A stretch of DNA of 32,000 nt from Promethearchaeia archaeon (GCA_046497275.1 JAWOFX010000142.1:1-32000); one strand, 5' to 3'; shown: positions 10,702 through 30,228, numbered from the stretch's first letter. Numbers and translations: made by a program. The notes: a model not told the origin generated them from the letters alone.

Positions 10702-10980
10702 TTAACATAACCTCTACTTAGTATTCTTAATTTGCTCATCATATTAAATTCATACTTTTTTATTAAAATTTTTAATTCTATGAGGGAAAGAATACCCATT
10801 TAATAGATTTAAAGATCAAAAACATTGAAATTTATCCGAGAAAAACAGATAGGGGAATTGATCGCGAATTAGGGTTCTAATTAGAGATTATATCACTCTT
10901 AAAATGATATTTACTATAAATTCTCCTTAGTAAATCATTCAATAAACTAAATAGATATATAGGAATAGATTTAAAAAAAA

Positions 10981-11184
10981 TTATTTTTTATACTTCGATC
11001 TTTTTGCTCCAATTGAGTCTGGTTGGCCACCATACTTCCCTTTTTCAATGCGTTTTTCATACAATTCTCGATAACGCATTCTTGGAGGCTTTTTTGGAGT
11101 TGAATTTACGCCCGTTTTTTCAATCTTTGGGGTTTGCATTTTGACTTTTCCTGCTTTTGTTAAACTTCCGTGTGAACCTGGCAT
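10981..11184 (-). CDS. rps30e: Ribosomal protein eS30 (standalone, no ubiquitin-like fusion)
   Basis: SHGSLTKAGKVKMQTPKI signature. SD GAGGT upstream. Confidence 0.93.
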   Translation of the reverse strand: MPGSHGSLTKAGKVKMQTPKIEKTGVNSTPKKPPRMRYRELYEKRIEKGKYGGQPDSIGAKRSKYKK

Positions 11185-11374
11185 ATGTTTAACCTCGTTT
11201 TCTTTTTTTTATTATTTAATTGTTTCTTAAATTTATTTCTAATATAAATAGCAATCTTAAACACTTAAATTTTAGGATTATGGTTTAACTAAAAACTGGA
11301 CTCCATTCATTTTAATTAAAATTGTAGGGATATTTAAATAATAATATCATAATGATTGAGAAGTTCATACCAAA

Positions 11375-11548
11375 ATGAAAAATGTAAAAGAAGAATCTAA
11401 GAAAAAAAATATTGAAAAAGTGATGTTTGGCGAAGATACAATGAATTGCTTCGCTTGCGGGGAAAAACTATCTTTAAAAGATACAGAAGCTGAGCGCTGT
11501 CCATATTGTGGCACAGAAATAAATAAAAAGGATATTAAAACACAATGA
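11375..11548 (+). CDS. 57-aa zinc-ribbon protein (absent from ORF track)
   Basis: MKNVKEESKKKNIEKVMFGEDTMNCFACGEKLSLKDTEAERCPYCGTEINKKDIKTQ*, with CxxC...CPxC. Confidence 0.7.
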   Translation: MKNVKEESKKKNIEKVMFGEDTMNCFACGEKLSLKDTEAERCPYCGTEINKKDIKTQ

Positions 11549-11635
11549 GCTTATTAATTAATATTTATAAGGAATAAAAATTTAATTCCAGCAATTTATT
11601 TATTTCTTAGAGAATAAAAAATTTTTGAAGCAAAA

Positions 11636-13383: not shown

Positions 13384-13400
13384 TATTTAAAAAGAAAAAA
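13384..13400 (-). promoter_or_regulatory. T-rich/TATA element, spacing variant TTTTTTCTTTTTAAATA
   Basis: 19 nt upstream of ATG 13364 in a divergent intergenic region. Confidence 0.55.
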
Positions 13401-13431
13401 GTAAGAGAAGAATCATAAAAAAACTCTTCAC

Positions 13432-13446
13432 CTTTTTCTTTATATA
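13432..13446 (+). promoter_or_regulatory. T-rich/TATA element CTTTTTCTTTATATA (1 mismatch)
   Basis: 23 nt upstream of a small ORF at 13470. Confidence 0.5.
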
Positions 13447-13554
13447 TCTAAAAATTACAAAATAGTGCTATGATTTCAAAACAAACTTATATATATAAAA
13501 ATCAAGTTCTTACTAACGTTGTCTTTATTTCATTTTTATAGTTAAATTTATAAA

Positions 13555-13569
13555 TTTTTTCTTTATATA
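13555..13569 (+). promoter_or_regulatory. T-rich/TATA element TTTTTTCTTTATATA (exact)
   Basis: 68 nt upstream of ATG 13638. Confidence 0.65.
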
Positions 13570-14081: not shown

Positions 14082-14735
14082 TTAAGAAAAATTGAACAAA
14101 TTGAACAGCACTTGACCCAATAAATCCCGAAAGGTCTCAGCAACATTTTGTCCAGTGAGAGCAATCACGGGATACACAACGAGCGTTCCATCAGCATATT
14201 CTTCCTCTTTTGGAAGTCCTAATTGCTTCTTAAACTCATCAATATTTATCTTAGTCTGAATATCGCGCTTATTGAGTTGGATTATGTAGGGTATGCGTCG
14301 AGGGCTTGCAAAACTCAGCAACTCTCGGAAACTCCTTTTATTCTGCTCTAAAAGTTCTGGCTGAGAATCAGCAACAAACATGATCCCATCGGCACCTTCT
14401 AGTACATACTCTCTTGTAGAGAGAAAGCGCTCTTGCCCTGTGCAAGTAACTACATGCACGATGATTATATACTCTTGCGTATTAATGGTAGCTTCAAAGG
14501 AAAGAAACATAGAATCCTGCCATAGAGTTCTACCGTCTTTAGTTTCAATAGAATAACCTTTAGTGACTCTGTGACTGTCAAATTTTTCTTTAAGACGAAG
14601 GAAGTTGGTGGTTTTGCCCGATTCCCCAGGGCCCCAATAGACGATCTTTAATTGGATCATATTGCCAAGAATCACCCCCCCTGTATTAGTATGGATACTA
14701 TCATACTCCGATTCTTCGATTTCATTTCTGAGCAT
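14082..14735 (-). CDS. mglA: MglA-family small GTPase (alternative start ATG 14660)
   Basis: LKIVYWGPGESGKTTN (G1), RTLWQD switch I, TCTGQ (MglA-type G3 without Asp), ADGIMFVADSQ, NKRD (G4), ALTGQNV (G5). Confidence 0.88.
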   Translation of the reverse strand: MLRNEIEESEYDSIHTNTGGVILGNMIQLKIVYWGPGESGKTTNFLRLKEKFDSHRVTKGYSIETKDGRTLWQDSMFLSFEATINTQEYIIIVHVVTCTGQERFLSTREYVLEGADGIMFVADSQPELLEQNKRSFRELLSFASPRRIPYIIQLNKRDIQTKINIDEFKKQLGLPKEEEYADGTLVVYPVIALTGQNVAETFRDLLGQVLFNLFNFS

Positions 14736-14753: not shown

Positions 14754-15302
14754 TCAATCTAAAGAAATTATTTTATTACCGAATATTTCACTTTTTAGTA
14801 TCTTAATGTGTTCTTTCAGCTCTTTTTCGTTCATCTTTAAAGTACTTTTAATCGAACCTGAGTTTTCGATTTCCTTTTTAATTTTCATTGCGAAGCGTTG
14901 CATTTGTAAGACTGCTACGCCGATATTCACTTCATTATCCGATAGAAGGATGATGAGAACCTCTCGCTTTTCTTGTTGATTAAGCTCTACGTTGGTAATT
15001 GACTTAACAAACAATCGTAGATTATTATAGATAATAGAAGCACGATCCAAATAATCAGCATCGAAAAAATCTTGTCCTTGTCGCGCAACACCATAAAGCG
15101 CCGCACCAATGGAAGAGAGGTCCCAATAATTCAGATTTCTATCAAATCGCGAATCGACTGCGATAATTTTAGCATCTTGATCAACCGCGATGAGGCCATA
15201 TACGTACCCCTTTCGAGTAAGCGTGCCATAGCTATTTCGAATCTCGTCTAAAATAGTACTAATACTGTTCTTATACAAAACTTTTGGTATGGTAATGGTC
15301 AT
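14754..15302 (-). CDS. mglB: Roadblock/LC7 (MglB-like) protein; likely start ATG 15302 (MTITIPK) rather than 15398
   Basis: Roadblock pattern (GLIAVDQDAKIIA...LSSIGAALYGVARQ...VLIILL...NIGVAVLQMQR) directly upstream of mglA. The promoter motif lies inside the longer ORF's first 32 codons. Confidence 0.7.
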   Translation of the reverse strand: MTITIPKVLYKNSISTILDEIRNSYGTLTRKGYVYGLIAVDQDAKIIAVDSRFDRNLNYWDLSSIGAALYGVARQGQDFFDADYLDRASIIYNNLRLFVKSITNVELNQQEKREVLIILLSDNEVNIGVAVLQMQRFAMKIKKEIENSGSIKSTLKMNEKELKEHIKILKSEIFGNKIISLD

Positions 15303-15353: not shown

Positions 15354-15368
15354 TATATAAAGAAAAAA
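15354..15368 (-). promoter_or_regulatory. T-rich/TATA element TTTTTTCTTTATATA (exact)
   Basis: 51 nt upstream of mglB ATG 15302. Confidence 0.65.
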
Positions 15369-15394: not shown

Positions 15395-16330
15395 TCAAAA
15401 CATTTTTAAGATTGATTTTTTAGTAAAATGAAGTTCTTTTCTCTTATTATAATCATTCTTTTCGATAAAAATACTCTTTAATTTAATAAGCATTCCATTT
15501 TCAATGATGCGGAGAATCTCGATTGCCTGCATTCCCCATACCAATACATTGATAGCTCCAGTCTCATCGCTTATCATAAATTTCAATAAAAAGGATTTGT
15601 CTCCATCTTCAGAATCAAATTCTTTCAACTCATCTATCTTTACTATGCCTGAGATTTCTTTTACAAATCCATCCTTCTGATACAGATCTCGTATTTTTAA
15701 TTCTTCCTGAGCCTCTCTTGAAGAAAACTCATTTTTTCTGGCATTAGATACCTCAATTTTTTGCAATTCCACTTTTATTTTTTTAGGAATATTATCAGGA
15801 TTTAATTGTACCTTTCCTTGTTTTGAGAGATGCACTTCTAACCGATCTTTCAATCCTTTCTTACAATAGCAATTTATAACTCTAATAATTGTTCCGATCT
15901 TGAAAAATTCAGTCTGCATAATCTTGGTATGATCATCCCAAAGCACGATTTTGGTAGTTCCTGAGGTATCTGATATCAAAAACGAACCAACATTACCTGA
16001 AGTACCGTCTTTTCGCATGAATTCATTTATGGGAAAAATACGTTTAATCTTTCCCAACAGAACAATATTTGAAAGATTTTCACGTAGATCCGATATGAGG
16101 ATTATAAATTCATTATAATCAATTTCTTGATTTGCTTCTTCGTAGAGTTCAGGATCGATTTGAGCTGACCGAATCTCGATCCCATTTTCTTTTGCGATGA
16201 GGAAAAGAGCGCCTTGAGGAGTTATAAATCCCTTAAACTCAAGTTCTTTGCGTTTTAGTTCCTCTTTTATCTCTTGTTCTGATAGTCCTGCTTCGGTCAG
16301 TTTTTGGTATACATCTTGGGCATCACTCAT
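15395..16330 (-). CDS. rpa: RPA/SSB-like OB-fold single-stranded DNA-binding protein
   Basis: N-terminal helical domain (GFITPQGALFLIAKENGI), OB1 (NIVLLGKI...F.RKDGTSGNVGSFLISDTSG..KIVLWD), OB2 (LKFMISDETGAINVLVWG). Confidence 0.85.
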   Translation of the reverse strand: MSDAQDVYQKLTEAGLSEQEIKEELKRKELEFKGFITPQGALFLIAKENGIEIRSAQIDPELYEEANQEIDYNEFIILISDLRENLSNIVLLGKIKRIFPINEFMRKDGTSGNVGSFLISDTSGTTKIVLWDDHTKIMQTEFFKIGTIIRVINCYCKKGLKDRLEVHLSKQGKVQLNPDNIPKKIKVELQKIEVSNARKNEFSSREAQEELKIRDLYQKDGFVKEISGIVKIDELKEFDSEDGDKSFLLKFMISDETGAINVLVWGMQAIEILRIIENGMLIKLKSIFIEKNDYNKRKELHFTKKSILKMF

Positions 16331-16931
16331 TTTTTTTTAATACACCTTTTTCAATCATTATATTTTTAGTACGATAAAAGGCATAGGCAGAACAATCCAT
16401 AAGCACTCGGATATTTTGCATTAACAAATTTTTTGTAGATAAAGGATCGTTCAAATCAGTGAGATAGATAACTATCGCAAGTTGCGTGGATATTCGTGGC
16501 CAAAAACTCGCAATTTGGAAAAATTGCTGAAGAATTTTCAGGTTAGTTTTTGCTCGGGGATAATCGAATACTGGAGCCAATTTATAGACTTTATGTAAAT
16601 AGATTCTTACTTTGGAATAAATACGATTCTGTTTATATCTCCACTGGATATGCGATCTTTTCCAAAATTTTCTAAAGTAATAAAACTGAGCAAAAAATTT
16701 TTCTATTATGTCCCTAACCAGAAACTCTTGAATATTGGATTCTTCAGAGATTTGACGATAAGTATCATCAGAAAGCATATCTAGCAGAACCGTCTCATCT
16801 CCGTCTTTAGTAATTGGATGACCTCGAAAAAGCGTCTTTAATACTTTCTGCCTAATCTTTCCGAAATATAAAGAGTATTTTAACTCATGGGCAGTTTTTT
16901 CCTTAATGGTTATACTAAATACATTGGTCAT
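16323..16931 (-). CDS. Hypothetical protein, possible HTH plus TFIIB/cyclin-like C-terminal repeat
   Basis: Overlaps the rpa start by 8 nt (operon). LAIVIYL...CSAYAFYRTKNI loosely resembles the TFB repeat end. Confidence 0.55.
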   Translation of the reverse strand: MTNVFSITIKEKTAHELKYSLYFGKIRQKVLKTLFRGHPITKDGDETVLLDMLSDDTYRQISEESNIQEFLVRDIIEKFFAQFYYFRKFWKRSHIQWRYKQNRIYSKVRIYLHKVYKLAPVFDYPRAKTNLKILQQFFQIASFWPRISTQLAIVIYLTDLNDPLSTKNLLMQNIRVLMDCSAYAFYRTKNIMIEKGVLKKNE

Positions 16932-16990: not shown

Positions 16991-17005
16991 TATTTAAATA
17001 AAAAA
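16991..17005 (-). promoter_or_regulatory. T-rich/TATA element TTTTTTATTTAAATA (1 mismatch)
   Basis: 59 nt upstream of ATG 16931. Confidence 0.55.
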
Positions 17006-17067: not shown

Positions 17068-18165
17068 TCAAAATATCATATCCAATGTCTTTTGAACGGT
17101 GCTAGGACGATTCAAATCATACTGAAAAAATCGTAAGCATTCGTAAAAGTTCTCATTAAGTTTTTTTGAATGCTTTTCTACTCGTTCTGGGTTTAAATGA
17201 TGATCCTTGCATAATAACTTAAAAATTCTCATTTTATCAGGTGGATTCCAACATAAATAATCAAATGAATCTAATACTTCAGGTAAAAGGAAAATTTTCC
17301 GAACTTCTGAAATAAGATCTCGGTCTAACTTTGAAAAGTCAAATTCATTGTGCTTTTTCGATTTTATTTTCTCGATAGTTTGATATTTTTTAATTAATTT
17401 GAGTGCTGTTTTAGGCCCGATTCCTTTAATACCTTGGAAATAATCAGTCTCAAGCATAAATGCGAGATCAACTAGTTGAAAGCGATCAATTCCTAACAAT
17501 TCTAAATTATGTTGTATATCTATTACCAATGGAACTAAACGAGTATATGTCCATTTATTTTGCACTTTTCTCCTCAGAGATTTTGATAAGTTTTGAATTA
17601 GAAATGGGCACCCAAACAGCAATGAATCAAAATCCTGCGAATTAGAAAAGTTAGCGATACCTTTTTTGACTAAGTGGGCACATTGCGATTCTGCTGAGGC
17701 GGGCGATTCGACTACGGGAACCCCAATCGCATGAAGAAGCTCTTTCGATTCTTTCATGATATTCGGCCATAAGTATTCTTTTGAAAGAGCGATAGTCCTT
17801 GCTAATTCTCTATTTCCGCTATTTATAGCATTTTTATATCGCTTTTGGGTGAACAAAAAATCATTAAGTTGATTTTTAGTAATTTTTCGCTTTAGTGGAG
17901 AAACTCTGCCATCAAAACAAAAAATTGGAAGGATGTTTTTGCTGTAATAAAATTTGATCCTGTAGAGAATTCCGTATAAATGAGAAATGACTCGTTGCGT
18001 ACGATCAAGAATTAAATTAGTTTCTGTATTTAATGTTGGATTTTTATGGCTGAAGTTGAGCAATCCCATGATTATGTTCGGTGCATCAACAGAAATTATT
18101 TTTCCCTTTAATTCTTGGAAAGTAATTTTTCTTCGCTGAATAATAGGATCTAATTTGATTCCCAT
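17068..18165 (-). CDS. fen: Flap endonuclease FEN1/XPG-family paralogue with C-terminal PIP box
   Basis: ISVDA, SHLYG, FCFDG, SAESQCAHL, SQDFDSLLFG, ETDY, GIKGIGPKTALKLI (H3TH), QKTLDMIF. Confidence 0.88.
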   Translation of the reverse strand: MGIKLDPIIQRRKITFQELKGKIISVDAPNIIMGLLNFSHKNPTLNTETNLILDRTQRVISHLYGILYRIKFYYSKNILPIFCFDGRVSPLKRKITKNQLNDFLFTQKRYKNAINSGNRELARTIALSKEYLWPNIMKESKELLHAIGVPVVESPASAESQCAHLVKKGIANFSNSQDFDSLLFGCPFLIQNLSKSLRRKVQNKWTYTRLVPLVIDIQHNLELLGIDRFQLVDLAFMLETDYFQGIKGIGPKTALKLIKKYQTIEKIKSKKHNEFDFSKLDRDLISEVRKIFLLPEVLDSFDYLCWNPPDKMRIFKLLCKDHHLNPERVEKHSKKLNENFYECLRFFQYDLNRPSTVQKTLDMIF

Positions 18166-18185: not shown

Positions 18186-18201
18186 AAATAAAAAGAAAAA
18201 A
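18186..18201 (-). promoter_or_regulatory. T-rich/TATA element, variant TTTTTTCTTTTTATTT
   Basis: 20 nt upstream of FEN1 ATG 18165 in a divergent region. Confidence 0.45.
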
Positions 18202-18375: not shown

Positions 18376-18390
18376 ATTTTTCTTTAAATA
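18376..18390 (+). promoter_or_regulatory. T-rich/TATA element ATTTTTCTTTAAATA (1 mismatch)
   Basis: 56 nt upstream of ATG 18447. Confidence 0.6.
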
Positions 18391-18446
18391 AAGTCAAAAT
18401 GTTGTATCTTTATATTAATAAAATATTCTATAATGAGGGAACATTA

Positions 18447-18809
18447 ATGGGAGAAGATATAGTGTTTTATGATGAACCTGGCAGGAGTAAAAAATATGTA
18501 AAAATCATATTTATTGGGATCTTAGCATTTATTGCAATCTATTTTCCACTTTTCGGAAATAATCTGCGGTATCAGATCGGAGGGATGCTTGATACACTCT
18601 TTAATTTTATTGGGATTATCTGCTTGTTCTTAGGGGGAATAAATATTGCCATCGGATTTTTAGGACTAGTTGCAAAAAAATTCTATTTGGGAAATGTGGT
18701 CATAGGGGCACTCTTACTGTGGATAGGATGTTGGCTTACAGGGATTGTGATAAATTTATTCGGAGTAATTTTTGGCGGCTCCGAAGTTTCTAATCCTGGA
18801 TATCATTAA
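18447..18809 (+). CDS. Small 3-TM membrane protein (possibly VirB2/CedA1-like pilin); likely start ATG 18447 rather than 18399
   Basis: GAGG SD precedes 18447, and ATG 18399 is only 8 nt from the TATA element. Gly-rich hydrophobic helices with an AKK loop. Confidence 0.65.
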   Translation: MGEDIVFYDEPGRSKKYVKIIFIGILAFIAIYFPLFGNNLRYQIGGMLDTLFNFIGIICLFLGGINIAIGFLGLVAKKFYLGNVVIGALLLWIGCWLTGIVINLFGVIFGGSEVSNPGYH

Positions 18810-19188: not shown

Positions 19189-19203
19189 TTTTTTCTTTAA
19201 ATA
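19189..19203 (+). promoter_or_regulatory. T-rich/TATA element TTTTTTCTTTAAATA (exact)
   Basis: 33 nt upstream of TTG 19237 and 45 nt upstream of ATG 19249, in a divergent region. Confidence 0.7.
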
Positions 19204-19236: not shown

Positions 19237-19587
19237 TTGAAAAAAAATATGCGACAAATTGAAGAAATAGGGATCTGTCCTAATTGCGACTGCTCGTTAA
19301 TGATTTATAAGACTTCAAACTATAAGCGGTTTGTTAAGTGCGAAATTTGTGGCCATTCCTACCCTCTTCCCAAACGAGGGCATATTGATAATTCAGCACT
19401 TATATGTCCCTTGCGAGGGTATCCTATTTTAATTGTTCAAAAACGAGACAGTAAAGCATATTTCTGGACAGATAGACCATGTTTTAGCTGCGTCCATATG
19501 GGCACATGCGAGCCTGTCAAGCAATTAGAAGAAGAATTTACTGAATTGGGAGTGTATGGATATGATCAAGCAGGGCAAAACACATAA
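19237..19587 (+). CDS. Standalone topoisomerase-IA-type zinc-ribbon repeat protein
   Basis: CPNCDCSLMIYKTSNYKRFVKCEICGHSYPLP.....CPLRGYPIL...FWTDRPCFSC resembles archaeal topo IA C-terminal Zn ribbons. Confidence 0.7.
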   Translation: MKKNMRQIEEIGICPNCDCSLMIYKTSNYKRFVKCEICGHSYPLPKRGHIDNSALICPLRGYPILIVQKRDSKAYFWTDRPCFSCVHMGTCEPVKQLEEEFTELGVYGYDQAGQNT

Positions 19588-20676: not shown

Positions 20677-21897
20677 TTATAGGTTTTGGGCGTAATTTTG
20701 CCACTCTTCTATCATCGATTTTGAGATTCCACTGACTTTTTCAGCTAAATCCTTGGGATCTTTATCCAGTAAGTCATCAATTGTTTCAATTCCATGTTCT
20801 TTTAGAGTATTAAGGGTTCCTTTCCCTATTCCTTTGATATCTGTGAGAGAAGGAGTGTTTCCTTGGTTGATCTCGTCATTATTATCATCATCATTATCTT
20901 CATATAATTCTTCAATTTCAAAGTCTAATCCTTTTCTATTAGGAATTTCCACTTCTTCGGAATCCGCAACACCTGCATGTGTGATAAAGAATTCACACTC
21001 TTCTGGGGGAAGATCGGGTGCATCTACGATCACTGCTCTTCTTTTGAGTGAACTATTTGCAGAGAATCCTTTCGTCTTAAACATAATACGGAAATGACAC
21101 CCATGTGCGACGATATTTCCGCCAATCGCATCATCCGCAGAAAACATACCTTTCATCTGTGTGGCTACTTGGTTGGTAAGCAGAACTGCAGCATTATATG
21201 TCTCTGCGATCCGTGATAATCCATGAATCATATTGTTGAGAACGCATTGTCGTGAAGCAAGCATTCCAATCCCGACATATTCCGCTCGCAAAAGTGCCAT
21301 TAAACTGTCAAGGATTATTAAACGCACATTACGAGTTTCACAGAGTGTTTCTGCCTTAAGAATCATCTGATCTTGATGGTCAGAACTATAGATCCTGGCG
21401 TGAAATATCTTAGCAAGAACTTCTTCAGGATCCAAATTAAATCTAAGTGCGATACGTTTAATTTTACTCCGTGAAAAGGTATTTTCAGTATCAATATAGG
21501 CAACAGAGCTTTCTAATCCTCCTTTCTCCTTCGGAAGCTGGATTGTTACAGCGATTGTATGTGCTAAATTTGTCTTTCCGGATTTAAAGGGACCATATAC
21601 TTCAGTGAGCTTTCCTGTCTGCATCCCCCCTCCAAGGATTCGATCTAATTCAGAAGATCCTGTGGTAAACATTTCGATATGTTCGTCGATTTCAGCAGCA
21701 GGAATAAATTCAGTCATTCCAAGTGTGTTCCTCGCATTCCAGATAAGTTTTTTGGCTGTTTTATCCCCAAGTCCTTTGATATCTGCCACCAATTTTTGTG
21801 ACGACATGGCAAGCATTTCGGCAGTAGAAATACCACTTTCTCGTAAAAGCTTAATATGACGAGAATTAATTCCTTTAATCTGGCTTAAATCTGATAT
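20677..21897 (-). CDS. radA: RadA/Rad51-family recombinase paralogue with an extra C-terminal HhH domain; likely non-AUG start (ATA 21897), ORF-track start 21816
   Basis: TTGSSELDRILGGG, GPFKSGKT, AYIDTENTF, LIILDS, RAEYVG, TNQV, IGGNIVAH, VDAPDLP. The N-terminal HhH continues 27 codons upstream of 21816. Confidence 0.88.
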   Translation of the reverse strand: MSDLSQIKGINSRHIKLLRESGISTAEMLAMSSQKLVADIKGLGDKTAKKLIWNARNTLGMTEFIPAAEIDEHIEMFTTGSSELDRILGGGMQTGKLTEVYGPFKSGKTNLAHTIAVTIQLPKEKGGLESSVAYIDTENTFSRSKIKRIALRFNLDPEEVLAKIFHARIYSSDHQDQMILKAETLCETRNVRLIILDSLMALLRAEYVGIGMLASRQCVLNNMIHGLSRIAETYNAAVLLTNQVATQMKGMFSADDAIGGNIVAHGCHFRIMFKTKGFSANSSLKRRAVIVDAPDLPPEECEFFITHAGVADSEEVEIPNRKGLDFEIEELYEDNDDDNNDEINQGNTPSLTDIKGIGKGTLNTLKEHGIETIDDLLDKDPKDLAEKVSGISKSMIEEWQNYAQNL

Positions 21898-21950
21898 TGT
21901 GTTTTACACCTCCTGTGCATAATTATATTATTAAAATTACAAGCTCATCA

Positions 21951-21965
21951 TATATAAAGAAAAAA
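21951..21965 (-). promoter_or_regulatory. T-rich/TATA element TTTTTTCTTTATATA (exact)
   Basis: 53 nt upstream of the proposed radA start. SD GGAGGTG at 21907-21913. Confidence 0.7.
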
Positions 21966-22081: not shown

Positions 22082-22450
22082 CTATGAAAGGATTTCTCTT
22101 AATCGAGAAATATATTCTTTGGGAGTGATTCCGTGAAGAAACGCTGCATGCATCATACGAATATTAATCTCTTCTACTTGCGTTTTCATACTCTCCCCCT
22201 CTATTCCTAAGCTTTTAAGTATAATTGGAAGTGAGAATTCTTCTTTAGGATACTTTCCAAAATGACCACCATATGCAAGAAACATATTTAAAATCAAATT
22301 AATATCAGCCTTTGAAAAAATTCTTCGACAATTTTCACATACTGGGATGTAAAGAATCTTAGATTGATAAACTGAAGAGGGATTGTTAATAATATGGTGA
22401 CAAATTCCACATCGAAGGGGATAATTATTATTTTTCGCTAATGAGTTCAT
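22082..22450 (-). CDS. Small zinc-finger protein
   Basis: CGICHH...PVCENC motif pair. Confidence 0.7.
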   Translation of the reverse strand: MNSLAKNNNYPLRCGICHHIINNPSSVYQSKILYIPVCENCRRIFSKADINLILNMFLAYGGHFGKYPKEEFSLPIILKSLGIEGESMKTQVEEINIRMMHAAFLHGITPKEYISRLREILS

Positions 22451-22471: not shown

Positions 22472-22486
22472 TATTTAAAGAAAAAG
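22472..22486 (-). promoter_or_regulatory. T-rich/TATA element CTTTTTCTTTAAATA (1 mismatch)
   Basis: 21 nt upstream of ATG 22450, a leaderless spacing. Confidence 0.6.
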
Positions 22487-22514: not shown

Positions 22515-23234
22515 TCAAGTGTTAGGAAGGATGTTTATTCCTTTTTGCCGCAAGAGATATTCATATGAAGTGGATTTTGTATCGGTGTGAAATTTTATAA
22601 AATATTTTTTTTGAAATTGATCTTTTTGTAAAGCAATATTTAGGCCATTCAATCTACTGAATAGCTGATCATTGAACATTACTGTCCTATCTTGGGTAGG
22701 ATCATAAGAAACCTCATGGATAAGGATTAAAATAATCTTATTATACTCGCAAAAAAAGATTAGAGGAATAATAGTAGAATCGAAAAAATCATCGAGAATC
22801 GCAACTTTATCGTTGATCAGATGAAATTGTGATAATTCAAATCGTAAATGGTGAGAGATATTATCAATTACAAGAATTCTAGTTTTTGGGGGTATTCTCA
22901 ACGCGCCATCTGAAATACCGGCTAATATCTTATTTTGCTCATAATAATCAAAAGGAGGGTGGATTTTTGGAATGATAAAGATATGGTCAAAAAGAAAGGT
23001 TAAGAGTCCTTGATCATTTAAATATAAACTCTTTAATCGTTTTTTTGGGAAAGTTTCGCTAGCTTGAACCCATACACTTACATTTTGTGCTTTTTCGTGG
23101 TGACTAAGAAAGATAGAGATAAATTGAAGCGCCAAGGTAGTTTTACCTGTTCCTGCTTTGCCGTAAATATTAATAAATGAAAAATGATCTAAGATATTTT
23201 GCAATATTTCTGTATTCGTATCATATTTATTCAT
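22515..23234 (-). CDS. RecA-superfamily paralogue (RadB/Rad55-like, no N-terminal HhH)
   Basis: INIYGKAGTGKTTLALQF Walker A, WVQASETFPKKRL (cf. YIDTEGTFSPERL), ILVIDNI Walker B. Confidence 0.75.
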   Translation of the reverse strand: MNKYDTNTEILQNILDHFSFINIYGKAGTGKTTLALQFISIFLSHHEKAQNVSVWVQASETFPKKRLKSLYLNDQGLLTFLFDHIFIIPKIHPPFDYYEQNKILAGISDGALRIPPKTRILVIDNISHHLRFELSQFHLINDKVAILDDFFDSTIIPLIFFCEYNKIILILIHEVSYDPTQDRTVMFNDQLFSRLNGLNIALQKDQFQKKYFIKFHTDTKSTSYEYLLRQKGINILPNT

Positions 23235-23602
23235 AAATCTTCACTCTCTAATAGCTTTAACACTTCTTGTTTGATCTGTTCTACCTCATCAATACTGTTT
23301 TGAGAATCATCATTAGAGTTGCTTGATTCTTGAGAATTATGTATGTCTCCTGTATTTAATTGCTCAAGCATTAAAAATGTGAGTAGTGAATCACTCATCA
23401 CATTCTGACTTGAACGGGATTTTCGAAAAGAAAAATATCCCGTTGTCTTAGCCCCTGAAGATGATTTCTTTCTTGCCCGTAAAAACAAAAACAGCCCAAT
23501 ACCAATTCCTAAAACAAGTAATGAGATGGTTGGATCTTTATTATAGAACATAATAAAAACTAATACTAATGTTAAATAGCAAAATGCCTTCATACTCACC
23601 AC
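23231..23602 (-). CDS. Small 2-TM membrane protein with polar/acidic tail
   Basis: Two N-terminal hydrophobic segments. Overlaps both neighbours (operon). Confidence 0.65.
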   Translation of the reverse strand: MVSMKAFCYLTLVLVFIMFYNKDPTISLLVLGIGIGLFLFLRARKKSSSGAKTTGYFSFRKSRSSQNVMSDSLLTFLMLEQLNTGDIHNSQESSNSNDDSQNSIDEVEQIKQEVLKLLESEDL

Positions 23603-24333
23603 TGCCCTCGTTCAATTTTTTGTGATTTTTTCTTTTTCGGAGAATGGCGTCTACGATATAGTTCAGAGGATCTAATGGAAGATCCTTGTTTTGAGATTTT
23701 TAATCTAATGTATTCAATAATTTTTCGTATTCCAATGAATGAATATTTGAATATATAATATCCAATCCCAATCAGTATATAAAAGAGAAAGCTGTAATAA
23801 TAGGGAATGATTATATACCAACTAGCCGAATATACAATCAGTGTTGAAAAAAGGACTAATCCAATTTGGTAGATGGAATAGCGAGGATCGTTATTAAATA
23901 CTCTCCCTATGTTATATATATCTGTACCTGAGGGTGAAGATCCTATTAAAAAAGAAACCAAACAAAATGCGGCAATAACTCTATAAATATCCTCAAAAGC
24001 AGGTGAAAGAAAAACGAATAAACAATAAAATGCTAAATAACTAATAATAAGTAATGGAGCTATCCCTGTTAAAAAGGATTGAAGAAAAGTCATACGTTTA
24101 AAATCTTTTAGTTCTACACTTCCATTTAAGCGTCTATAACTAACTTTAAAACGACCAGGGGTTCCGCCGGTTATCAAAAGCATTACAAAATGACTGAGTT
24201 CATGTATAAAGATTCCAAGCACTCCTAAAATTTTAACGATAACCGTAAGTTTGCGATTTTTATTATATATTAAGTATCTTACTAATAAGCCTGACGTAAA
24301 TACGATCGGAAATAAGATAAGATCTTCAAACAT
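23596..24333 (-). CDS. M50-like membrane zinc metalloprotease
   Basis: GIFIHELSHF (HExxH) within a TM segment, multiple TMs, SPSGTD candidate third-ligand motif. Confidence 0.75.
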   Translation of the reverse strand: MFEDLILFPIVFTSGLLVRYLIYNKNRKLTVIVKILGVLGIFIHELSHFVMLLITGGTPGRFKVSYRRLNGSVELKDFKRMTFLQSFLTGIAPLLIISYLAFYCLFVFLSPAFEDIYRVIAAFCLVSFLIGSSPSGTDIYNIGRVFNNDPRYSIYQIGLVLFSTLIVYSASWYIIIPYYYSFLFYILIGIGYYIFKYSFIGIRKIIEYIRLKISKQGSSIRSSELYRRRHSPKKKKSQKIERGQW

Positions 24334-24354
24334 AATGCTAAAATAAGCTTAGAT

Positions 24355-24369
24355 TATATAAAGAAAAAA
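24355..24369 (-). promoter_or_regulatory. T-rich/TATA element TTTTTTCTTTATATA (exact)
   Basis: 21 nt upstream of ATG 24333 in a divergent region, a leaderless spacing. Confidence 0.7.
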
Positions 24370-24801
24370 TAATAGTATAAATGATGGATATAGAAAATGT
24401 ATGAGTTATGAATAGATTAAGATTTGTTAATCTTATTAAATAAATAATTATAACATTTACCAGTGCTACAAATTTTTGAAAATTATAAGGAAAACATTTA
24501 CCTCGAGTTAGATCGCTCTAAATTTTTATGAAAAGAATCCTTTTCTCATTTTCAAGAGGGGTAGTCTAGATTAAGTGATCTGCAAGTTTTTATTTGAGAA
24601 TTCTTTATATTTTTATCTGTAAACAAAATTAAGAACCATTTATATTATATATAAAAAATGTTCAACTGTTCTATAAATCTGATTATAATTTTCTAAAATT
24701 TATTCAATAACAGTAATATTTAAAAAGACTACTCCCACTCTCTTCTATCTTAAGTTAATTTGAAAACATGATCAAAAAAATAGAAAAAGTGTTCAAAAAG
24801 T

Positions 24802-26061
24802 ATGGCATCACAAGATTATCCTAAAAATTTTTCAGTGGGAGATTTAGACTTAGAATGTGAAATATGTCATTCTTCAGAAATTAAAGAGACAGAGCAAGGT
24901 TATGTATGTGCTGATTGTGGGCTTGTATTAGAAATTCAGAAAATGGAATATCATCATCCATACAAAGAGGAGCGAATACAGCACGCAGTATTAGACAGAA
25001 CTCAAATTGGTAATACGCGTGAACGGTATCAAAATCAATTCTCGCGAAAATTTCATAAACTCAATAAAATAAATCATACTTCATCACGGGAAGATCCCAT
25101 ATATATGAGAGCAAAAGTAGAGATTTCCAGACTCATTAATGGACTTGAAATGTCGTCTAATATCAAGCGAAGTATACTAGAAAAGTATAAAAATGCACGG
25201 GATGAACTTGCTTCGGGTACAAAATTTCGCAATCCCGATAAATTAGTCCCTGGAGTGATGTACTATCATACAAAGATGAATGGCCAGCCGCTTGATGAGT
25301 CACAACTTCTGGATGTTTCAAAATTAGATAAAAAAGATTTTAATCGTCTTAAATTGAAGATTGGTGAATTTATGCCGGAATATTATTCACGTGATCGAAA
25401 AGAATACATTTCTAATCGCATAATGCAAATTCGTGAAGAATTTGAACTTGATATGGGCTTTTATCATAAAGCACAAGCGATACTTGAAAAATTATGGGAG
25501 GAAATTAAATGTACGAAAGATGACGTCGTGGCGGGGTTAGTAGGTTCAATAGTTGCATTATGCCACTATCAAGATGAAGTGAATGTAAATTCTATTTGTA
25601 AAGCCCTTCACATTCAAATGAGCACTATACAGTCTCAAGTAAAACGCAGAATCATTGATCAATTTCATGTACCAGGATTTCAGAGCTTAGTACGCTCTGC
25701 TGATCTATTAAAAAAAATCATGGTGAAATTAGGATTTTTCACAAAAAAAGATGCTGGAGTCTCAAAATTCTCAAAAAAAGATGAAGAAAAGAAAAATGGG
25801 CAAAACGAAGATGAAAAATATTTGGATTCAGAGATAGTATATATCGAATTACCGAAAGTGATGCCAGATACTCATTCTAGTCAACCTTTTGATCATTCCA
25901 TATTCGCTGTACGAGATGAAAATTCGTGTGATCCTACTATCCTCACGATTTCGCTCTTATATAGCCTAAAACAAAAACCGCAAAAAGCACAAAAACAAAA
26001 GATTAAATTCGAAATATCTCGCTACCACTATCCAAAAGGTCCCCCGATTTTGTATTGTTAA
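24802..26061 (+). CDS. tfb: Atypical transcription factor B (TFB/TFIIB) paralogue
   Basis: Zn ribbon CEICHS...YVCADCGLVL, two cyclin-like repeats, no recognisable B-reader (EWRAF), about 100-aa C-terminal extension. Confidence 0.82.
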   Translation: MASQDYPKNFSVGDLDLECEICHSSEIKETEQGYVCADCGLVLEIQKMEYHHPYKEERIQHAVLDRTQIGNTRERYQNQFSRKFHKLNKINHTSSREDPIYMRAKVEISRLINGLEMSSNIKRSILEKYKNARDELASGTKFRNPDKLVPGVMYYHTKMNGQPLDESQLLDVSKLDKKDFNRLKLKIGEFMPEYYSRDRKEYISNRIMQIREEFELDMGFYHKAQAILEKLWEEIKCTKDDVVAGLVGSIVALCHYQDEVNVNSICKALHIQMSTIQSQVKRRIIDQFHVPGFQSLVRSADLLKKIMVKLGFFTKKDAGVSKFSKKDEEKKNGQNEDEKYLDSEIVYIELPKVMPDTHSSQPFDHSIFAVRDENSCDPTILTISLLYSLKQKPQKAQKQKIKFEISRYHYPKGPPILYC

Positions 26062-26158
26062 GTTTTATGAAGTTCAGGAAAACTTAAATAATCCTGATCT
26101 AGTGTTTCAAGGTTTTTTTAATTTTTGTTTCTATACGAGATTTTTAATTGATTATCTG

Positions 26159-26173
26159 TTTTTTCTTTAAATA
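26159..26173 (+). promoter_or_regulatory. T-rich/TATA element TTTTTTCTTTAAATA (exact)
   Basis: 50 nt upstream of ATG 26224. Confidence 0.65.
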
Positions 26174-26223: not shown

Positions 26224-29200
26224 ATGACAAAACCAAAATTTTCTAGAAAACCGCTATTAATAATAACAGTTTTAGTATGTTGCTTTTTAATATCTTCTTT
26301 AAACTTCAAACCAAAAAGAGAACAGATAAATGGAGAATTCAGAGAAAATATTCACCCTTCTGGAGATATGAACAATTATGATTTTATTTCTACAGTGATG
26401 GATGACTTAACCAATATATATGGAGAATATGGATATTTTCCTACATATTATGAACCTTCTATTCAAAGCACATATTTTGCACTTCAAAGTTATTTATCAT
26501 TAGGCAGAATAAGTGATCTCAATGAAACAGAGATTATATCCTTTCTAATAGATCATTATGATACAGAGCAAGGATATTTTATTGATGACTATGCGATTCG
26601 GTATTTGGATACTGATTTTGAGGCATTTTATCTTCCTTTAAACACTTTACTGGAAGTAAACTGCTATGCGCTTCTCTCTTTAAAAATCCTTAACCGATTA
26701 GATTTGATCAACAATCAAAGTTTTATTGATTTTATTTGGAGTTGTTTTAATTCTGATGAAGGCGCATTTATAGGACAACCATATGATGTAGATCTTCATC
26801 CTAAATTCAAAATTCCTACATTAGATAATACCTATTATGCAGTGAAAATACTTGATCTCCTACTCGATACTTGGGATGAATATTATCCTCAAAGATCTCA
26901 ATTAATTACGTTTATTGAAGATTGCCAAACATTTATCACAAAAGAAGCGCAATATGGAGGATTTAAGAATGATCTGGTAAGCGGGTTTAGTTCATTGAGA
27001 ATAACAGATCCAAATATGCTCTCCTCGTTTTATGCATTGGAGACTCTTAATACTTTCAATGCGTTGGAAGCCATTAATATTGACGCTTTCAATCAATTCT
27101 TGAAAGATCTATACAATATAGAAAATTTCTTTTTTGAATTATCATGGTTTCCTGACCTTCCTACTCATGGCAGACCATTTGCAACCAGTATTGGATTATC
27201 TCTCTCATTGCTCACTGGTTATAACGAAATCAATGAAATGGGAATAGTTAATTATCTAAAAAGTATTCGCAACAATATTGGAGTATGGAAGAGCTCAATA
27301 AATGATCTCCAATTTGAATTGATTGATACATTCCAAGTACTTCGCTCTCTATATGACTCGAGGCATATTAATGATTTCACAAATGGCGAGAAGGATGCGA
27401 TTGCAGATGGACTTGAACATTTTAAGAGTTACCAGAGTTATTGCAATACACCCACCGATTATATGAGTATATCTGCTCTTTCATCCATAGCAAAATCATT
27501 CAAAATTTTTAATAGAGAAACAGATTTAGAGATCCAAGAATTATTTGTGTATTTGCGTGATGCATATATTAGTGATCCTGAAAATGAACCGCGAAGTTTT
27601 TATGGATATACAAATATGGATGCTAAATATTTATTTTTCAGAATCTATCCTATTGAATATTACAATTTGGGAACTTATTCTTCTCTGGAATATATAGATT
27701 ACTTATTTAATCATAAATTCGTTTATCAGGCCCTTACAGCTTTAAAAGATTTATACAAACTAGATGATTTTGACACTTTCTATGCTCTTAATGAATTGCT
27801 TGATCAAACAGTTTTAGCACAAATTATTAATCCCAATTCAGATAAATTTGGAGCATTTCTTCCTAATTCTCTTTTACTTAATTTTGATCAAGATCTTCAA
27901 GACAAAACGGTATTTTTAGAGCAATCATTTTATGCGATTCGTACTATGGAATTACTTAGAGATTATTTGGAATTAGGATCCTTAGAGGAATTATTATTGG
28001 ATTCTGAGGCTTTAAAAGTATATATATTTAATACTTTTGAGGCACCGGGATCTTATTGCTATTCCATGCCCCGTGCGACCAGTGACGTGAATATCATTCT
28101 TAAAAACACTTATTATGCTAGTTATATAATGAAATCTCTTGACTCATTTACACAAGATACGCAAAAAATCAAGAATTATATTATGGATCATCTTGACTAC
28201 AATGATATTGAAAACATTTATTATTCTTATCTCCTCGATCAATTGTTAGAGTTAGATATAGAATTTCCTATTGAATCAGTCCAGGCTTTAATCCAGGAAC
28301 TTTATTGCGAGGATTTGAATTGTTTTTATCTAACTACAGAAAAAAATAAGATTAATCAACAGATACTATATTGGATCTGTGATATGGCTAAAAATGATAA
28401 ATACCGTTATAACATTAATTTCGATGATGTTATTCTCTTGGATTCATATTCTATGATCACTGTAGAAATACAAAATCTTATCTTAAATAGCATTGGTCAA
28501 TATGGTTCTCTCAAGTTCGAAAGTGACCAATTGGGGGAATATGCCTTTACTGAATTTGGTGAAGGAGTGTTCCGATGTAATGTTTTTGTGCCATTTGATG
28601 TTTCTAATTATCCTACAATTGAAGGAAATATCTCGCGCTATGAATTTTCTACGAAACAAGAGGTGATTCCTATTAGTTTTAACACAACTTATGAACTCTT
28701 CTCAGAGATTAACTTCTTAGAAAATGCTAATACAATCAATATTGAAATTAACTGTTCATTGAATATCGCCTCAGGAAGTAGAAATTTACCAGATGGAGAA
28801 TCATTTATGCATATTTATCATGAAGGAGAATATATTGCCACAGATAGTCTCTCGTATCAACAAAACGGTGATTATACAAAGTATTTTTTAGAGTATGAAT
28901 ATACTCAGTTCGGAAACTATTCTTTTGAATTATACGTGAATGATGGCCTTAACGAAAGCGATCATTTCATTGGAAAAATTATGACACAACATAGCTACCA
29001 ACTGATCTCTGAAGTGTCAATTTCCCGCATTAACACTACCATTAATTTTATTATCAACGCGTCTATGATGGTGGAAGGGAGTGAAATCCAACCATTCTCA
29101 TACGGTTCAGCATTTTTAAAAATATATAGAGAAGGTACTTATATTCAACAAAAAAATTTTATTGGAGAAGACCGCGACACTTATACTCATTTTGAGACTA

Positions 29201-29466
29201 CATATATGATGATCCAAACAGGAAATTATTCATTTGAACTTTATCTTGATGATGGATTGAATCCAAGCCAGAATCTGATCTACGAATATTTTACCTCCTA
29301 TGGAAATGAACCACAAGATCCAACCGATCCACAACCCAATGGAACAAATGAACCTCAAATTCCACTAATTCTTTTCTATCCTATCATACTCCTCCCCTTA
29401 TTTGGATCCTCTGGAGCAATTGCATTTACATTTCTGAAGAAAAAGCAACTGAAAACTCTAAAATAA
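26224..29466 (+). CDS. Large cell-surface protein: prenyltransferase/squalene-cyclase-like repeats, two Ig-like repeats, Pro-rich linker, C-terminal TM
   Basis: Signal peptide. Repeats such as GAFIGQP..PTLDNTYYAVKIL, GGFKND..SSFYALETL and GAFLP..LEQSFYAIRTM. GNYSFELY.(N/D)DGLN occurs twice. EPQDPTDPQPNGTNEPQ linker, then TM and KKK. Confidence 0.75.
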   Translation: MTKPKFSRKPLLIITVLVCCFLISSLNFKPKREQINGEFRENIHPSGDMNNYDFISTVMDDLTNIYGEYGYFPTYYEPSIQSTYFALQSYLSLGRISDLNETEIISFLIDHYDTEQGYFIDDYAIRYLDTDFEAFYLPLNTLLEVNCYALLSLKILNRLDLINNQSFIDFIWSCFNSDEGAFIGQPYDVDLHPKFKIPTLDNTYYAVKILDLLLDTWDEYYPQRSQLITFIEDCQTFITKEAQYGGFKNDLVSGFSSLRITDPNMLSSFYALETLNTFNALEAINIDAFNQFLKDLYNIENFFFELSWFPDLPTHGRPFATSIGLSLSLLTGYNEINEMGIVNYLKSIRNNIGVWKSSINDLQFELIDTFQVLRSLYDSRHINDFTNGEKDAIADGLEHFKSYQSYCNTPTDYMSISALSSIAKSFKIFNRETDLEIQELFVYLRDAYISDPENEPRSFYGYTNMDAKYLFFRIYPIEYYNLGTYSSLEYIDYLFNHKFVYQALTALKDLYKLDDFDTFYALNELLDQTVLAQIINPNSDKFGAFLPNSLLLNFDQDLQDKTVFLEQSFYAIRTMELLRDYLELGSLEELLLDSEALKVYIFNTFEAPGSYCYSMPRATSDVNIILKNTYYASYIMKSLDSFTQDTQKIKNYIMDHLDYNDIENIYYSYLLDQLLELDIEFPIESVQALIQELYCEDLNCFYLTTEKNKINQQILYWICDMAKNDKYRYNINFDDVILLDSYSMITVEIQNLILNSIGQYGSLKFESDQLGEYAFTEFGEGVFRCNVFVPFDVSNYPTIEGNISRYEFSTKQEVIPISFNTTYELFSEINFLENANTINIEINCSLNIASGSRNLPDGESFMHIYHEGEYIATDSLSYQQNGDYTKYFLEYEYTQFGNYSFELYVNDGLNESDHFIGKIMTQHSYQLISEVSISRINTTINFIINASMMVEGSEIQPFSYGSAFLKIYREGTYIQQKNFIGEDRDTYTHFETTYMMIQTGNYSFELYLDDGLNPSQNLIYEYFTSYGNEPQDPTDPQPNGTNEPQIPLILFYPIILLPLFGSSGAIAFTFLKKKQLKTLK

Positions 29467-30213: not shown

Positions 30214-30228
30214 TTTTTTCTTTTAATA
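30214..30228 (+). promoter_or_regulatory. T-rich/TATA element, variant TTTTTTCTTTTAATA
   Basis: 45 nt upstream of hef ATG 30274. It could also be the terminator of the upstream gene. Confidence 0.5.

Follow-up and report, generated by a model that had tools for sequence, protein, structure and literature searches.

Archaea have a single RNA polymerase, and TFB paralogues with regulons of their own are known in Halobacterium and in Sulfolobus (TFB2 and TFB3). The individual residues of the TFB helix-turn-helix (HTH) that contact the B recognition element (BRE) are also known. At the upstream BRE it is helix 3 of the second HTH that inserts into the major groove (PMC8131849). The Sulfolobus cell-cycle paralogue TFB2 is differentially expressed and associated with the promoters of a specific cell-division regulon, which carry a TATA box and BRE like those of TFB1 promoters but with different spacing, and tfb2 is one of its own targets (bioRxiv 10.64898/2026.09.06.749720). 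TFB3, which belongs to the DNA-damage response, has no DNA-binding domain and acts together with the TFB1-TBP-DNA complex; the A(N)TTTC hexanucleotide in the DNA-damage promoters of its regulon precedes the BRE, at -44 to -39 (PMC5817253). Here we describe a 32,000-nucleotide stretch of DNA from Promethearchaeia archaeon (GCA_046497275.1, JAWOFX010000142.1:1-32000; hereafter the window) in which a divergent TFB-like gene at 24802-26061 lies within a gene island marked by a T-rich promoter motif. We posit, with roughly even credence on the sequence evidence, that this gene encodes an alternative initiation factor of the TFB/TFIIB family for the motif, made from a canonical-type promoter.

The order of Zn ribbon, reader/linker, two cyclin repeats and C-terminal HTH is shared with archaeal TFB (Pyrococcus woesei TFB, 1d3u/1ais) and with TFIIB, but the protein is only 12-19% identical to these, has the helix MSTIQSQVK, lacks EW, ends in a tail of about 100 residues terminating in KGPP, and is associated with T5C at the BRE position. 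As with Sulfolobus TFB2, a TFB paralogue is tied to a specific regulon, whereas in the present case an entirely different sequence occupies the BRE position and the promoter of the factor itself lacks the motif. With TFB3 the locus shares the linkage of a variant TFB to DNA repair and DNA-exchange genes and a T-rich promoter element in the regulon; unlike the truncated TFB3, however, the protein is full length, with both cyclin repeats and the HTH, and the element abuts the TATA box. A preliminary description of this DNA had invoked TFB3 as a precedent, which it can be for regulatory logic only, since it has no DNA-binding domain and the T-rich element of its regulon is placed upstream of the BRE; a closer precedent is TFB2.

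A TFIIB-like core with a C-terminal extension and no canonical B-reader is also reminiscent of Brf1/Brf2 of TFIIIB, and some family members carry the JGI label 'TFIIIB Brf1 subunit/TFIIB'. The C-terminal homology blocks of Brf1 bind TBP and Bdp1. No sequence similarity to these blocks was detected in the tail of the TFB-like protein, and structure matches to Brf (Z 12.4-14.8) are weaker than those to TFB/TFIIB. The likeness to bacterial alternative sigma factors is one of logic, not of family: these too are promoter-specificity subunits whose synthesis turns on an element-marked regulon, but the TFB-like protein has another architecture and would depend on TBP. To our knowledge, including the literature searched, there is no clear case of a paralogue in which both the helix and the BRE-position sequence of the presumed regulon have been rewritten, and nothing of the kind for Asgard archaea. 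A literature search found no paper describing this TFB-like family.

A full-length, highly divergent TFB homologue

The window is positions 1-32000 of a 36 kb contig (C13) from a 3.85 Mb genome (G000) that is 98.9% complete, and the named homologues of its proteins belong to Lokiarchaeota/Promethearchaeota. The open reading frame in question and its parts, all on the + strand, are as follows.

24802-26061, +: TFB/TFIIB-like open reading frame (P0001, 419 aa), from homology and structure matches
24856-24918, +: Zn ribbon, C19-x2-C22 ... C36-x2-C39, from a weak PF08271 match and cysteine conservation
24940-25026, +: reader/linker region, residues 47-75, with EYH[RH]PY for GPEWRAF and TQIG..ER for GLSTxIG
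25090-25386, +: first cyclin repeat, about residues 97-195, from PDB profile matches and structure matches
25396-25728, +: second cyclin repeat including the C-terminal HTH, about residues 199-309, from AlphaFold2, hhalign and VIA
25618-25656, +: HTH recognition helix, M273-S-T-I-Q-S-Q-V-K-R..., aligned to T-E-V-T-L-R-N-R-Y-K by hhalign
25747-26058, +: family-specific C-terminal tail, residues 316-419, with a low-complexity linker, about three beta strands and a KGPP end

The product is a genuine full-length, highly divergent TFB/TFIIB homologue, as evidenced by hhalign comparison with the TFBs of the same genome and by structure matches, from ribbon to C-terminal HTH. The family profile aligned to ten TFB genes of this genome with a probability of 99.3% (E 1.4e-19); the 279 aligned columns extend from the ribbon to the HTH at the C terminus. 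The AlphaFold2 model, with a core predicted local distance difference test (pLDDT) score of ~90, superimposes on the P. woesei TFB core from the complex with TBP and BRE+TATA DNA (1d3u_B; VIA Z 16.7, root-mean-square deviation 3.2 Å, 198/201 residues), and Foldseek gave TM scores of 0.73-0.74 against 1ais_B/1d3u_B. A profile of 30 homologues matches cyclin 1 of TFIIB/TFB in the PDB (E ~2e-4); a single-sequence phmmer search of the PDB gave no match. The Pfam Zn_Ribbon_TF model (PF08271) matches below threshold (E 1.9e-4), and all four ribbon cysteines (C19, C22, C36, C39) are invariant across the 30 homologues. The presence of a Zn ribbon and two cyclin repeats, as claimed in the preliminary description, is borne out by these cysteines and by the agreement of AlphaFold2, Foldseek, VIA and hhalign.

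The same description had noted the absence of the B-reader string EWRAF. The literal string is indeed missing, but profile alignment with hhalign pairs [RH]-P-Y of the family-conserved (E)YH[RH]PY with canonical R-A-F, and TQIG with STxIG, so that an R-x-aromatic remnant of the B-reader is kept. Loss of EW is not special to this protein either, since it is found in only 2 of the 9 canonical TFB paralogues of the genome, the other seven having KRAF, RRAF, RRAY or QRAF. Within the reader/linker region Y50, P53, G70, E74 and R75 are invariant in the 30 homologues, and Y54 and T67 are conserved in at least 90%.

No segment of the family is better conserved than the recognition helix, where M273 and S274 never vary and T275, I276, Q279 and V280 reach at least 90%, against a mean column identity of 40%. 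The canonical T-Q...T-E-V-T-L-R-N-R-Y-K aligns with N-V...Q-M-S-T-I-Q-S-Q-V-K of the TFB-like family, giving MSTIQSQVK in place of the TEVTxRxRYK of canonical TFBs and departing from the canonical BRE-contact pattern TEVTxRxR. That pattern, as TE[VT]T[LIV]RxR, is kept in 9/9 canonical paralogues of the genome, and MST[IV]xxQVK is retained in family members only 31% identical and in truncated paralogues. The substitutions reported earlier (Gln to V, Val to S and Arg to Q) match the profile alignment, which adds a second Arg to Q; the 21-residue HTH string from which they were read corresponds to residues 261-281 and ends at 25644 (25582-25644), so that the end previously given, 25650, lies 6 nucleotides too far.

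The C-terminal tail of ~100 aa, with its near-invariant terminal KGPP, has no match in Pfam or Atlas. It is modelled by AlphaFold2 with low confidence, at ~33-61 per 10-residue block in the full model and with a mean pLDDT of 61 and three strands when modelled alone. A complex prediction of the genome's TBP with the cyclin core (residues 95-315) gave a median of 0.26, against a mark of 0.32, a value that speaks neither for nor against the pairing.

Truncated paralogues exist in other genomes: one of 232 aa comprises the cyclin core only, without ribbon or reader (L116, 9708-10322; G144, g4), and one of 318 aa lacks the C-terminal tail (L186, 9333-10259; G207, g7). The nine canonical TFB paralogues of genome G000 lie on contigs C34, C1, C136, C31, C47, C178, C51, C124 and C44, and a tenth, divergent TFB-like gene (C1:38643-39659) encodes 338 aa with the helix IAEYSIRDHY. 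This genome has a single TBP (C172:65878-66456), compared with two or three in its relatives.

A T-rich motif fused to the TATA box

The 3.85 Mb genome contains 36 exact copies of the motif TTTTTCTTTWWATA, and this one 36 kb contig accounts for 11 of them. Allowing up to one mismatch, the window holds 16 sites where 1.5 are expected, a number reached in 0/100 shuffles, and the motif on which the preliminary description relied is therefore real. When 66 exact sites, drawn from this locus and 20 related ones, are combined in a logo, T5C directly adjoins an 8-nt TATA box, with an extra T upstream; an A stands six bases past the TATA end, and TTAA about 22 nt downstream of that end. Several sites stand 21 nt before an ATG, which suggests leaderless transcripts at these promoters. 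With the TATA box TTTAAATA placed at -30 to -23, T5C occupies -36 to -31, which is the position of the BRE, and the geometry relative to the transcription start is also correct. The motif has T at BRE positions -3 and -6, which in strong Sulfolobus BREs are A and A/G, respectively (PMC5817253).

Between 12 and 33 kb, the motif marks some 14 transcription units. Its copies, with the genes that they precede, are listed here.

13386-13399 (-), 13433-13446 (+) and 13556-13569 (+): three motif copies in one divergent intergenic region (13386-13569)
15354-15367, -: motif copy upstream of 14754-15302 and a small GTPase (14082-14735)
16991-17004, -: one-mismatch copy upstream of 16323-16931 and an RPA-like gene (15395-16330)
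18187-18200, -: one-mismatch copy upstream of a FEN1-like gene (17068-18165)
18377-18390, +: motif copy upstream of a 136-aa membrane protein (18399-18809)
19190-19203, +: motif copy upstream of a topoisomerase-type Zn-ribbon protein (19237-19587) and a 337-aa membrane protein
21951-21964, -: motif copy upstream of a RadA-like gene (20677-21816)
22472-22485, -: motif copy 21 nt before the ATG of a 122-aa Zn-finger protein (22082-22450)
24355-24368, -: motif copy TTTTTCTTTATATA, 21 nt before the ATG of the divergent operon 23596-24333 / 23231-23602 / RadB-like 22515-23234
26160-26173, +: motif copy upstream of a 1080-aa alpha-alpha-toroid, membrane-anchored protein (26224-29466)
30215-30228, +: motif copy upstream of a Hef-like helicase/nuclease (30268 onward)

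A canonical BRE for this genome was not obtained for comparison: TTTWWATA strings upstream of open reading frames gave a flat profile with no BRE signal, and tRNA promoters yielded none from the only 13 tRNAs found by ARAGORN.

The TFB-like gene has a promoter of another type

The motif is absent from the promoter of the TFB-like gene itself, which is the single island unit without it. This promoter is instead of a different, canonical-looking type with an apparent purine-rich BRE.

24710-24752, +: promoter of the TFB-like gene, with a purine-rich stretch, TATTTAAAAA (24717-24726) and ACTCC; predicted transcription start at ~24748-24752

In eight orthologous loci the purine-rich stretch is conserved together with A(G/T)ATTTAAAAAG..ACTCC..CTTAG. 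In salt-lake metatranscriptomes from two studies, RNA-library contigs span 24752-26103; they start at 24752 and 24773, in agreement with the start predicted from the promoter, although contigs cannot prove a start. They cover the TFB-like gene well and its neighbours patchily, and the absence or patchiness of neighbours is not usable as evidence. The divergent intergenic region at 24334-24801 is 468 nt long, far more than two promoters need, and gave no Rfam or ARAGORN match.

Factor, motif and island co-occur across genera

The TFB-like family was found in 32 of 40 genomes of one GTDB family within Lokiarchaeia and in none of 160 genomes from 26 other families of the phylum; further genera of the former GTDB family also have it. 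An exhaustive search returned 334 cluster representatives, and a search of 2.9 million viral contigs (IMG/VR) with the family profile found no relative. The co-occurrence check that the preliminary description had proposed was carried out here, and the TFB clade, the motif and the island occur together across more than 10 genera. In syntenic loci the exact motif reaches 7 copies per 20 kb at most, and the density in the present genome sets a background of ~0.2.

In G135, G141 and G180, three genomes that do not have the factor, the island RadA is missing as well, and there is no motif excess over a reversed-pattern control, with summed genome-wide counts of 60 motif and 64 control copies. The 31 genomes with a full-length match hold 958 motif copies and 709 control copies (~1.35-fold), a comparison confounded by the copies that the island itself contributes. 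Two further genomes (G165, G156), in which the island runs into contig ends, do not allow absence of the factor to be judged.

Outside the island, the single-copy topoisomerase IA gene (C172:141156-143456, L012) has an exact motif 88 nt upstream. Among 29 scorable topoisomerase IA promoters, the motif with up to one mismatch was present in 9 of the 21 genomes with the factor and in 0 of the 8 without a detected factor. The test is only partly independent: the relatives are non-independent, perhaps three loss events are involved, and both groups include exceptions. A single genus offers a direct contrast, in which G210 and G216, which have the factor, carry the motif with 0 and 1 mismatch, respectively; of those without it, G141 and G213 have none and G135 has a copy with 2 mismatches.

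The TFB-like gene is present in multiple copies in some genomes. At four loci of G168 (L051, L052, L111, L112) a unit of ~1.5 kb contains only this gene, with 90-95% nucleotide identity between units, in four unrelated, non-island and defence-like contexts (AAA_15/AAA_21, NACHT and SMC-like neighbours). Exact motif copies lie just outside each unit, amounting to 6 exact copies versus 0 for the control in 65 kb, and no transposase was seen near the units among the open reading frames checked.

A conserved island of recombination and membrane genes

The motif-marked genes form a conserved island of at least 20 kb that combines recombination genes with membrane and surface genes. Its order (FEN1-like, two small genes, RadA-like, Zn protein, RadB-like, DUF3267, TFB-like, 1080-aa, 229-aa, Hef-like) recurs in other genera, in at least 15 loci and at protein identities of 30-80%. 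The divergent RadA-, RadB-, RPA-, FEN1- and Hef-like copies that carry the motif each have paralogues elsewhere in the genome, and the FEN1-like protein scores below the equivalog cut-off. Other members are Zn-ribbon proteins, an Arf/Ras-like GTPase, small membrane proteins, a DUF3267 membrane protein and the 1080-aa alpha-alpha-toroid protein. Across genera, the Zn-ribbon protein at 19237-19587 keeps 55-67% identity, and it weakly matches a Zn ribbon of topoisomerase type.

The RadA-like gene (window 20677-21964) has a helix-hairpin-helix after the ATPase core (Pfam HHH_5, residues 324-374), and its product aligns to RadA models only from model position 27-32. Its motif stands 134 nt before the first ATG, and for this reason the true start may be further upstream or non-canonical. 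The 1080-aa protein (26224-29466) has a signal-anchor-like N terminus, alpha-alpha-toroid repeats of prenyltransferase type, two repeated beta-rich modules and a C-terminal transmembrane anchor, and its gene lies directly 3' of the TFB-like gene in every syntenic locus.

A second motif cluster of three exact copies, two of them back to back, lies at C158:22628-27006 of the same genome (L011), in front of two uncharacterised proteins and a ThiF/E1-like protein. Homologues of its 387-aa protein are found 10-40 kb from the TFB-like gene in other genomes, and the cluster is probably a continuation of the island, which would then be larger than contig C13 shows. We had considered the cluster as an independent test of the link between factor and motif and rejected it, as it is part of the extended island in other genomes. 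For another motif target, a 683-aa protein on contig C71, no orthologues were found within the family.

At the border between metabolic genes and the island, ~930 nt (10702-11635) are without an open reading frame of at least 80 aa and without a tRNA or Rfam match; tRNA and Rfam scans of the whole window likewise gave none.

Proposed mechanism and alternatives

In addition to the homology and fold, family distribution, motif clustering, promoter geometry, synteny and differing own promoter described above, we infer a DNA specificity of the helix, contacts with TBP and RNA polymerase, and activation rather than repression. TBP would bind the TATA box TTTAAATA, and the second cyclin repeat would put the altered helix (M-S-T-I-Q-S-Q-V-K), in which Gln/Ser/Thr stand where canonical TFBs have Val/Arg/Arg, into the major groove directly upstream of it. 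There the helix would read (T)TTTTTC in place of the canonical purine-rich BRE, while the Zn ribbon and the conserved reader/linker would recruit RNA polymerase. The factor would in this way drive the ~14 motif-marked island units and a few outside genes such as topoisomerase IA. Since its own gene has a different, canonical-type promoter without the motif, making the factor would switch the island on, as a sigma factor does.

Several observations weigh against this proposal. The protein has no match to Pfam PF00382 (TFIIB) and scores 19 bits against a cut-off of 384 for the NCBIfam TFIIB model NF001658, and its competence in initiation is uncertain because the B-reader is altered. Enrichment upstream of genes is a general property of T/C-rich heptamers in this genome, which makes the T-rich part alone unspecific; TTTTTCTTT is followed by WWATA in 3.1% of cases, versus 1.0-2.8% for control cores, and what is specific is the fusion with TATA. 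The topoisomerase IA motif is missing in four genomes that have the factor (G215, G019, G030, G208) and in both g7 genomes, and a near-motif is present in G153 and G147 (92-94% complete), in which no factor was detected. Variants of the helix at positions 277/278 (QS, HK, HR, QF and NY) show no covariation with the motif, which is the same everywhere, and none could be obtained given that both are essentially invariant. Every comparative association is moreover confounded by the location of the factor inside the island, so that any island-encoded DNA-binding regulator would fit. The earlier suggestion that this TFB reads the T-rich element and activates the surrounding genes is thus upheld in part, by the geometry at the BRE position, the clustering, the co-occurrence, the rewritten helix, the distinct promoter of the factor and topoisomerase IA, all of which are circumstantial.

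The T-rich element might instead be read by another protein, either a Zn-ribbon or DNA-binding protein of the island (for example 19237-19587, 22082-22450 or 16323-16931) or a canonical TFB paralogue, with the TFB-like protein a mere member of the regulon or active at other promoters. This would fit all of the co-occurrence data equally well as well as the missing covariation, the island does encode several small conserved Zn-ribbon proteins such as that at 19237-19587, and the T-rich A(N)TTTC element of Sulfolobus is thought to be read by a separate regulator rather than by a TFB (PMC5817253). However, the Sulfolobus element is upstream of the BRE and the present one abuts TATA at the BRE position, all canonical paralogues keep the canonical recognition helix, and the TFB-like gene, where it is duplicated on its own, has motif copies next to it in unrelated contexts. 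That the TFB-like gene is the sole island unit without the motif also suits a master regulator better than a regulon member, and we regard a different reader as rather unlikely, although it is the main rival reading. We consider it improbable that the protein is a decoy or repressor, which would occupy TBP and the motif promoters, or TBP alone, without productive recruitment of RNA polymerase and keep the island silent until its removal. The altered B-reader, the long extra C-terminal tail and the ribbon-less paralogues reduced to the cyclin core (232 aa, g4) could be read in that way, and good RNA coverage of the gene beside patchy coverage of its neighbours is a weak hint in the same direction; but the ribbon and reader/linker are strongly constrained, as expected for contact with RNA polymerase, the R-x-aromatic remnant is retained, and known regulon-bearing TFB paralogues act positively (bioRxiv 10.64898/2026.09.06.749720).

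A mobile element or provirus that brought its own TFB for its genes, an origin not exclusive of the other readings, has a precedent in Asgard viruses and mobile elements that encode TFB homologues (bioRxiv 10.1101/2021.07.29.453957). It would be in keeping with island genes that are extra paralogues of housekeeping genes and with the multi-copy 1.5 kb unit, 90-95% identical at the nucleotide level, in its variable defence-like contexts. Against it stand the conservation of order across more than 10 genera with 30-80% identities that look vertical, an unremarkable GC content, a window in which no integrase, capsid or tRNA attachment site was seen, and the lack of any relative among the 2.9 million viral contigs; we therefore think such an origin very unlikely.

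Returning to the alternative initiation factor, we suggest tentatively, and somewhat short of even confidence, that in an Asgard archaeon a TFB paralogue with a re-specified BRE-recognition helix serves as a true promoter-specificity switch, which reads a pyrimidine-rich 'anti-BRE' beside TATA and thereby turns on second-copy RadA, RadB, RPA, FEN1 and Hef together with membrane and surface proteins. If the link between factor and motif is true, it would show sigma-like promoter selection by a member of the TFIIB family in a clean and testable form, and studies of Asgard gene expression would have a promoter/factor pair ready for use. It would also open a way into the biology of a conserved island in which duplicated recombination proteins are coupled to surface proteins.

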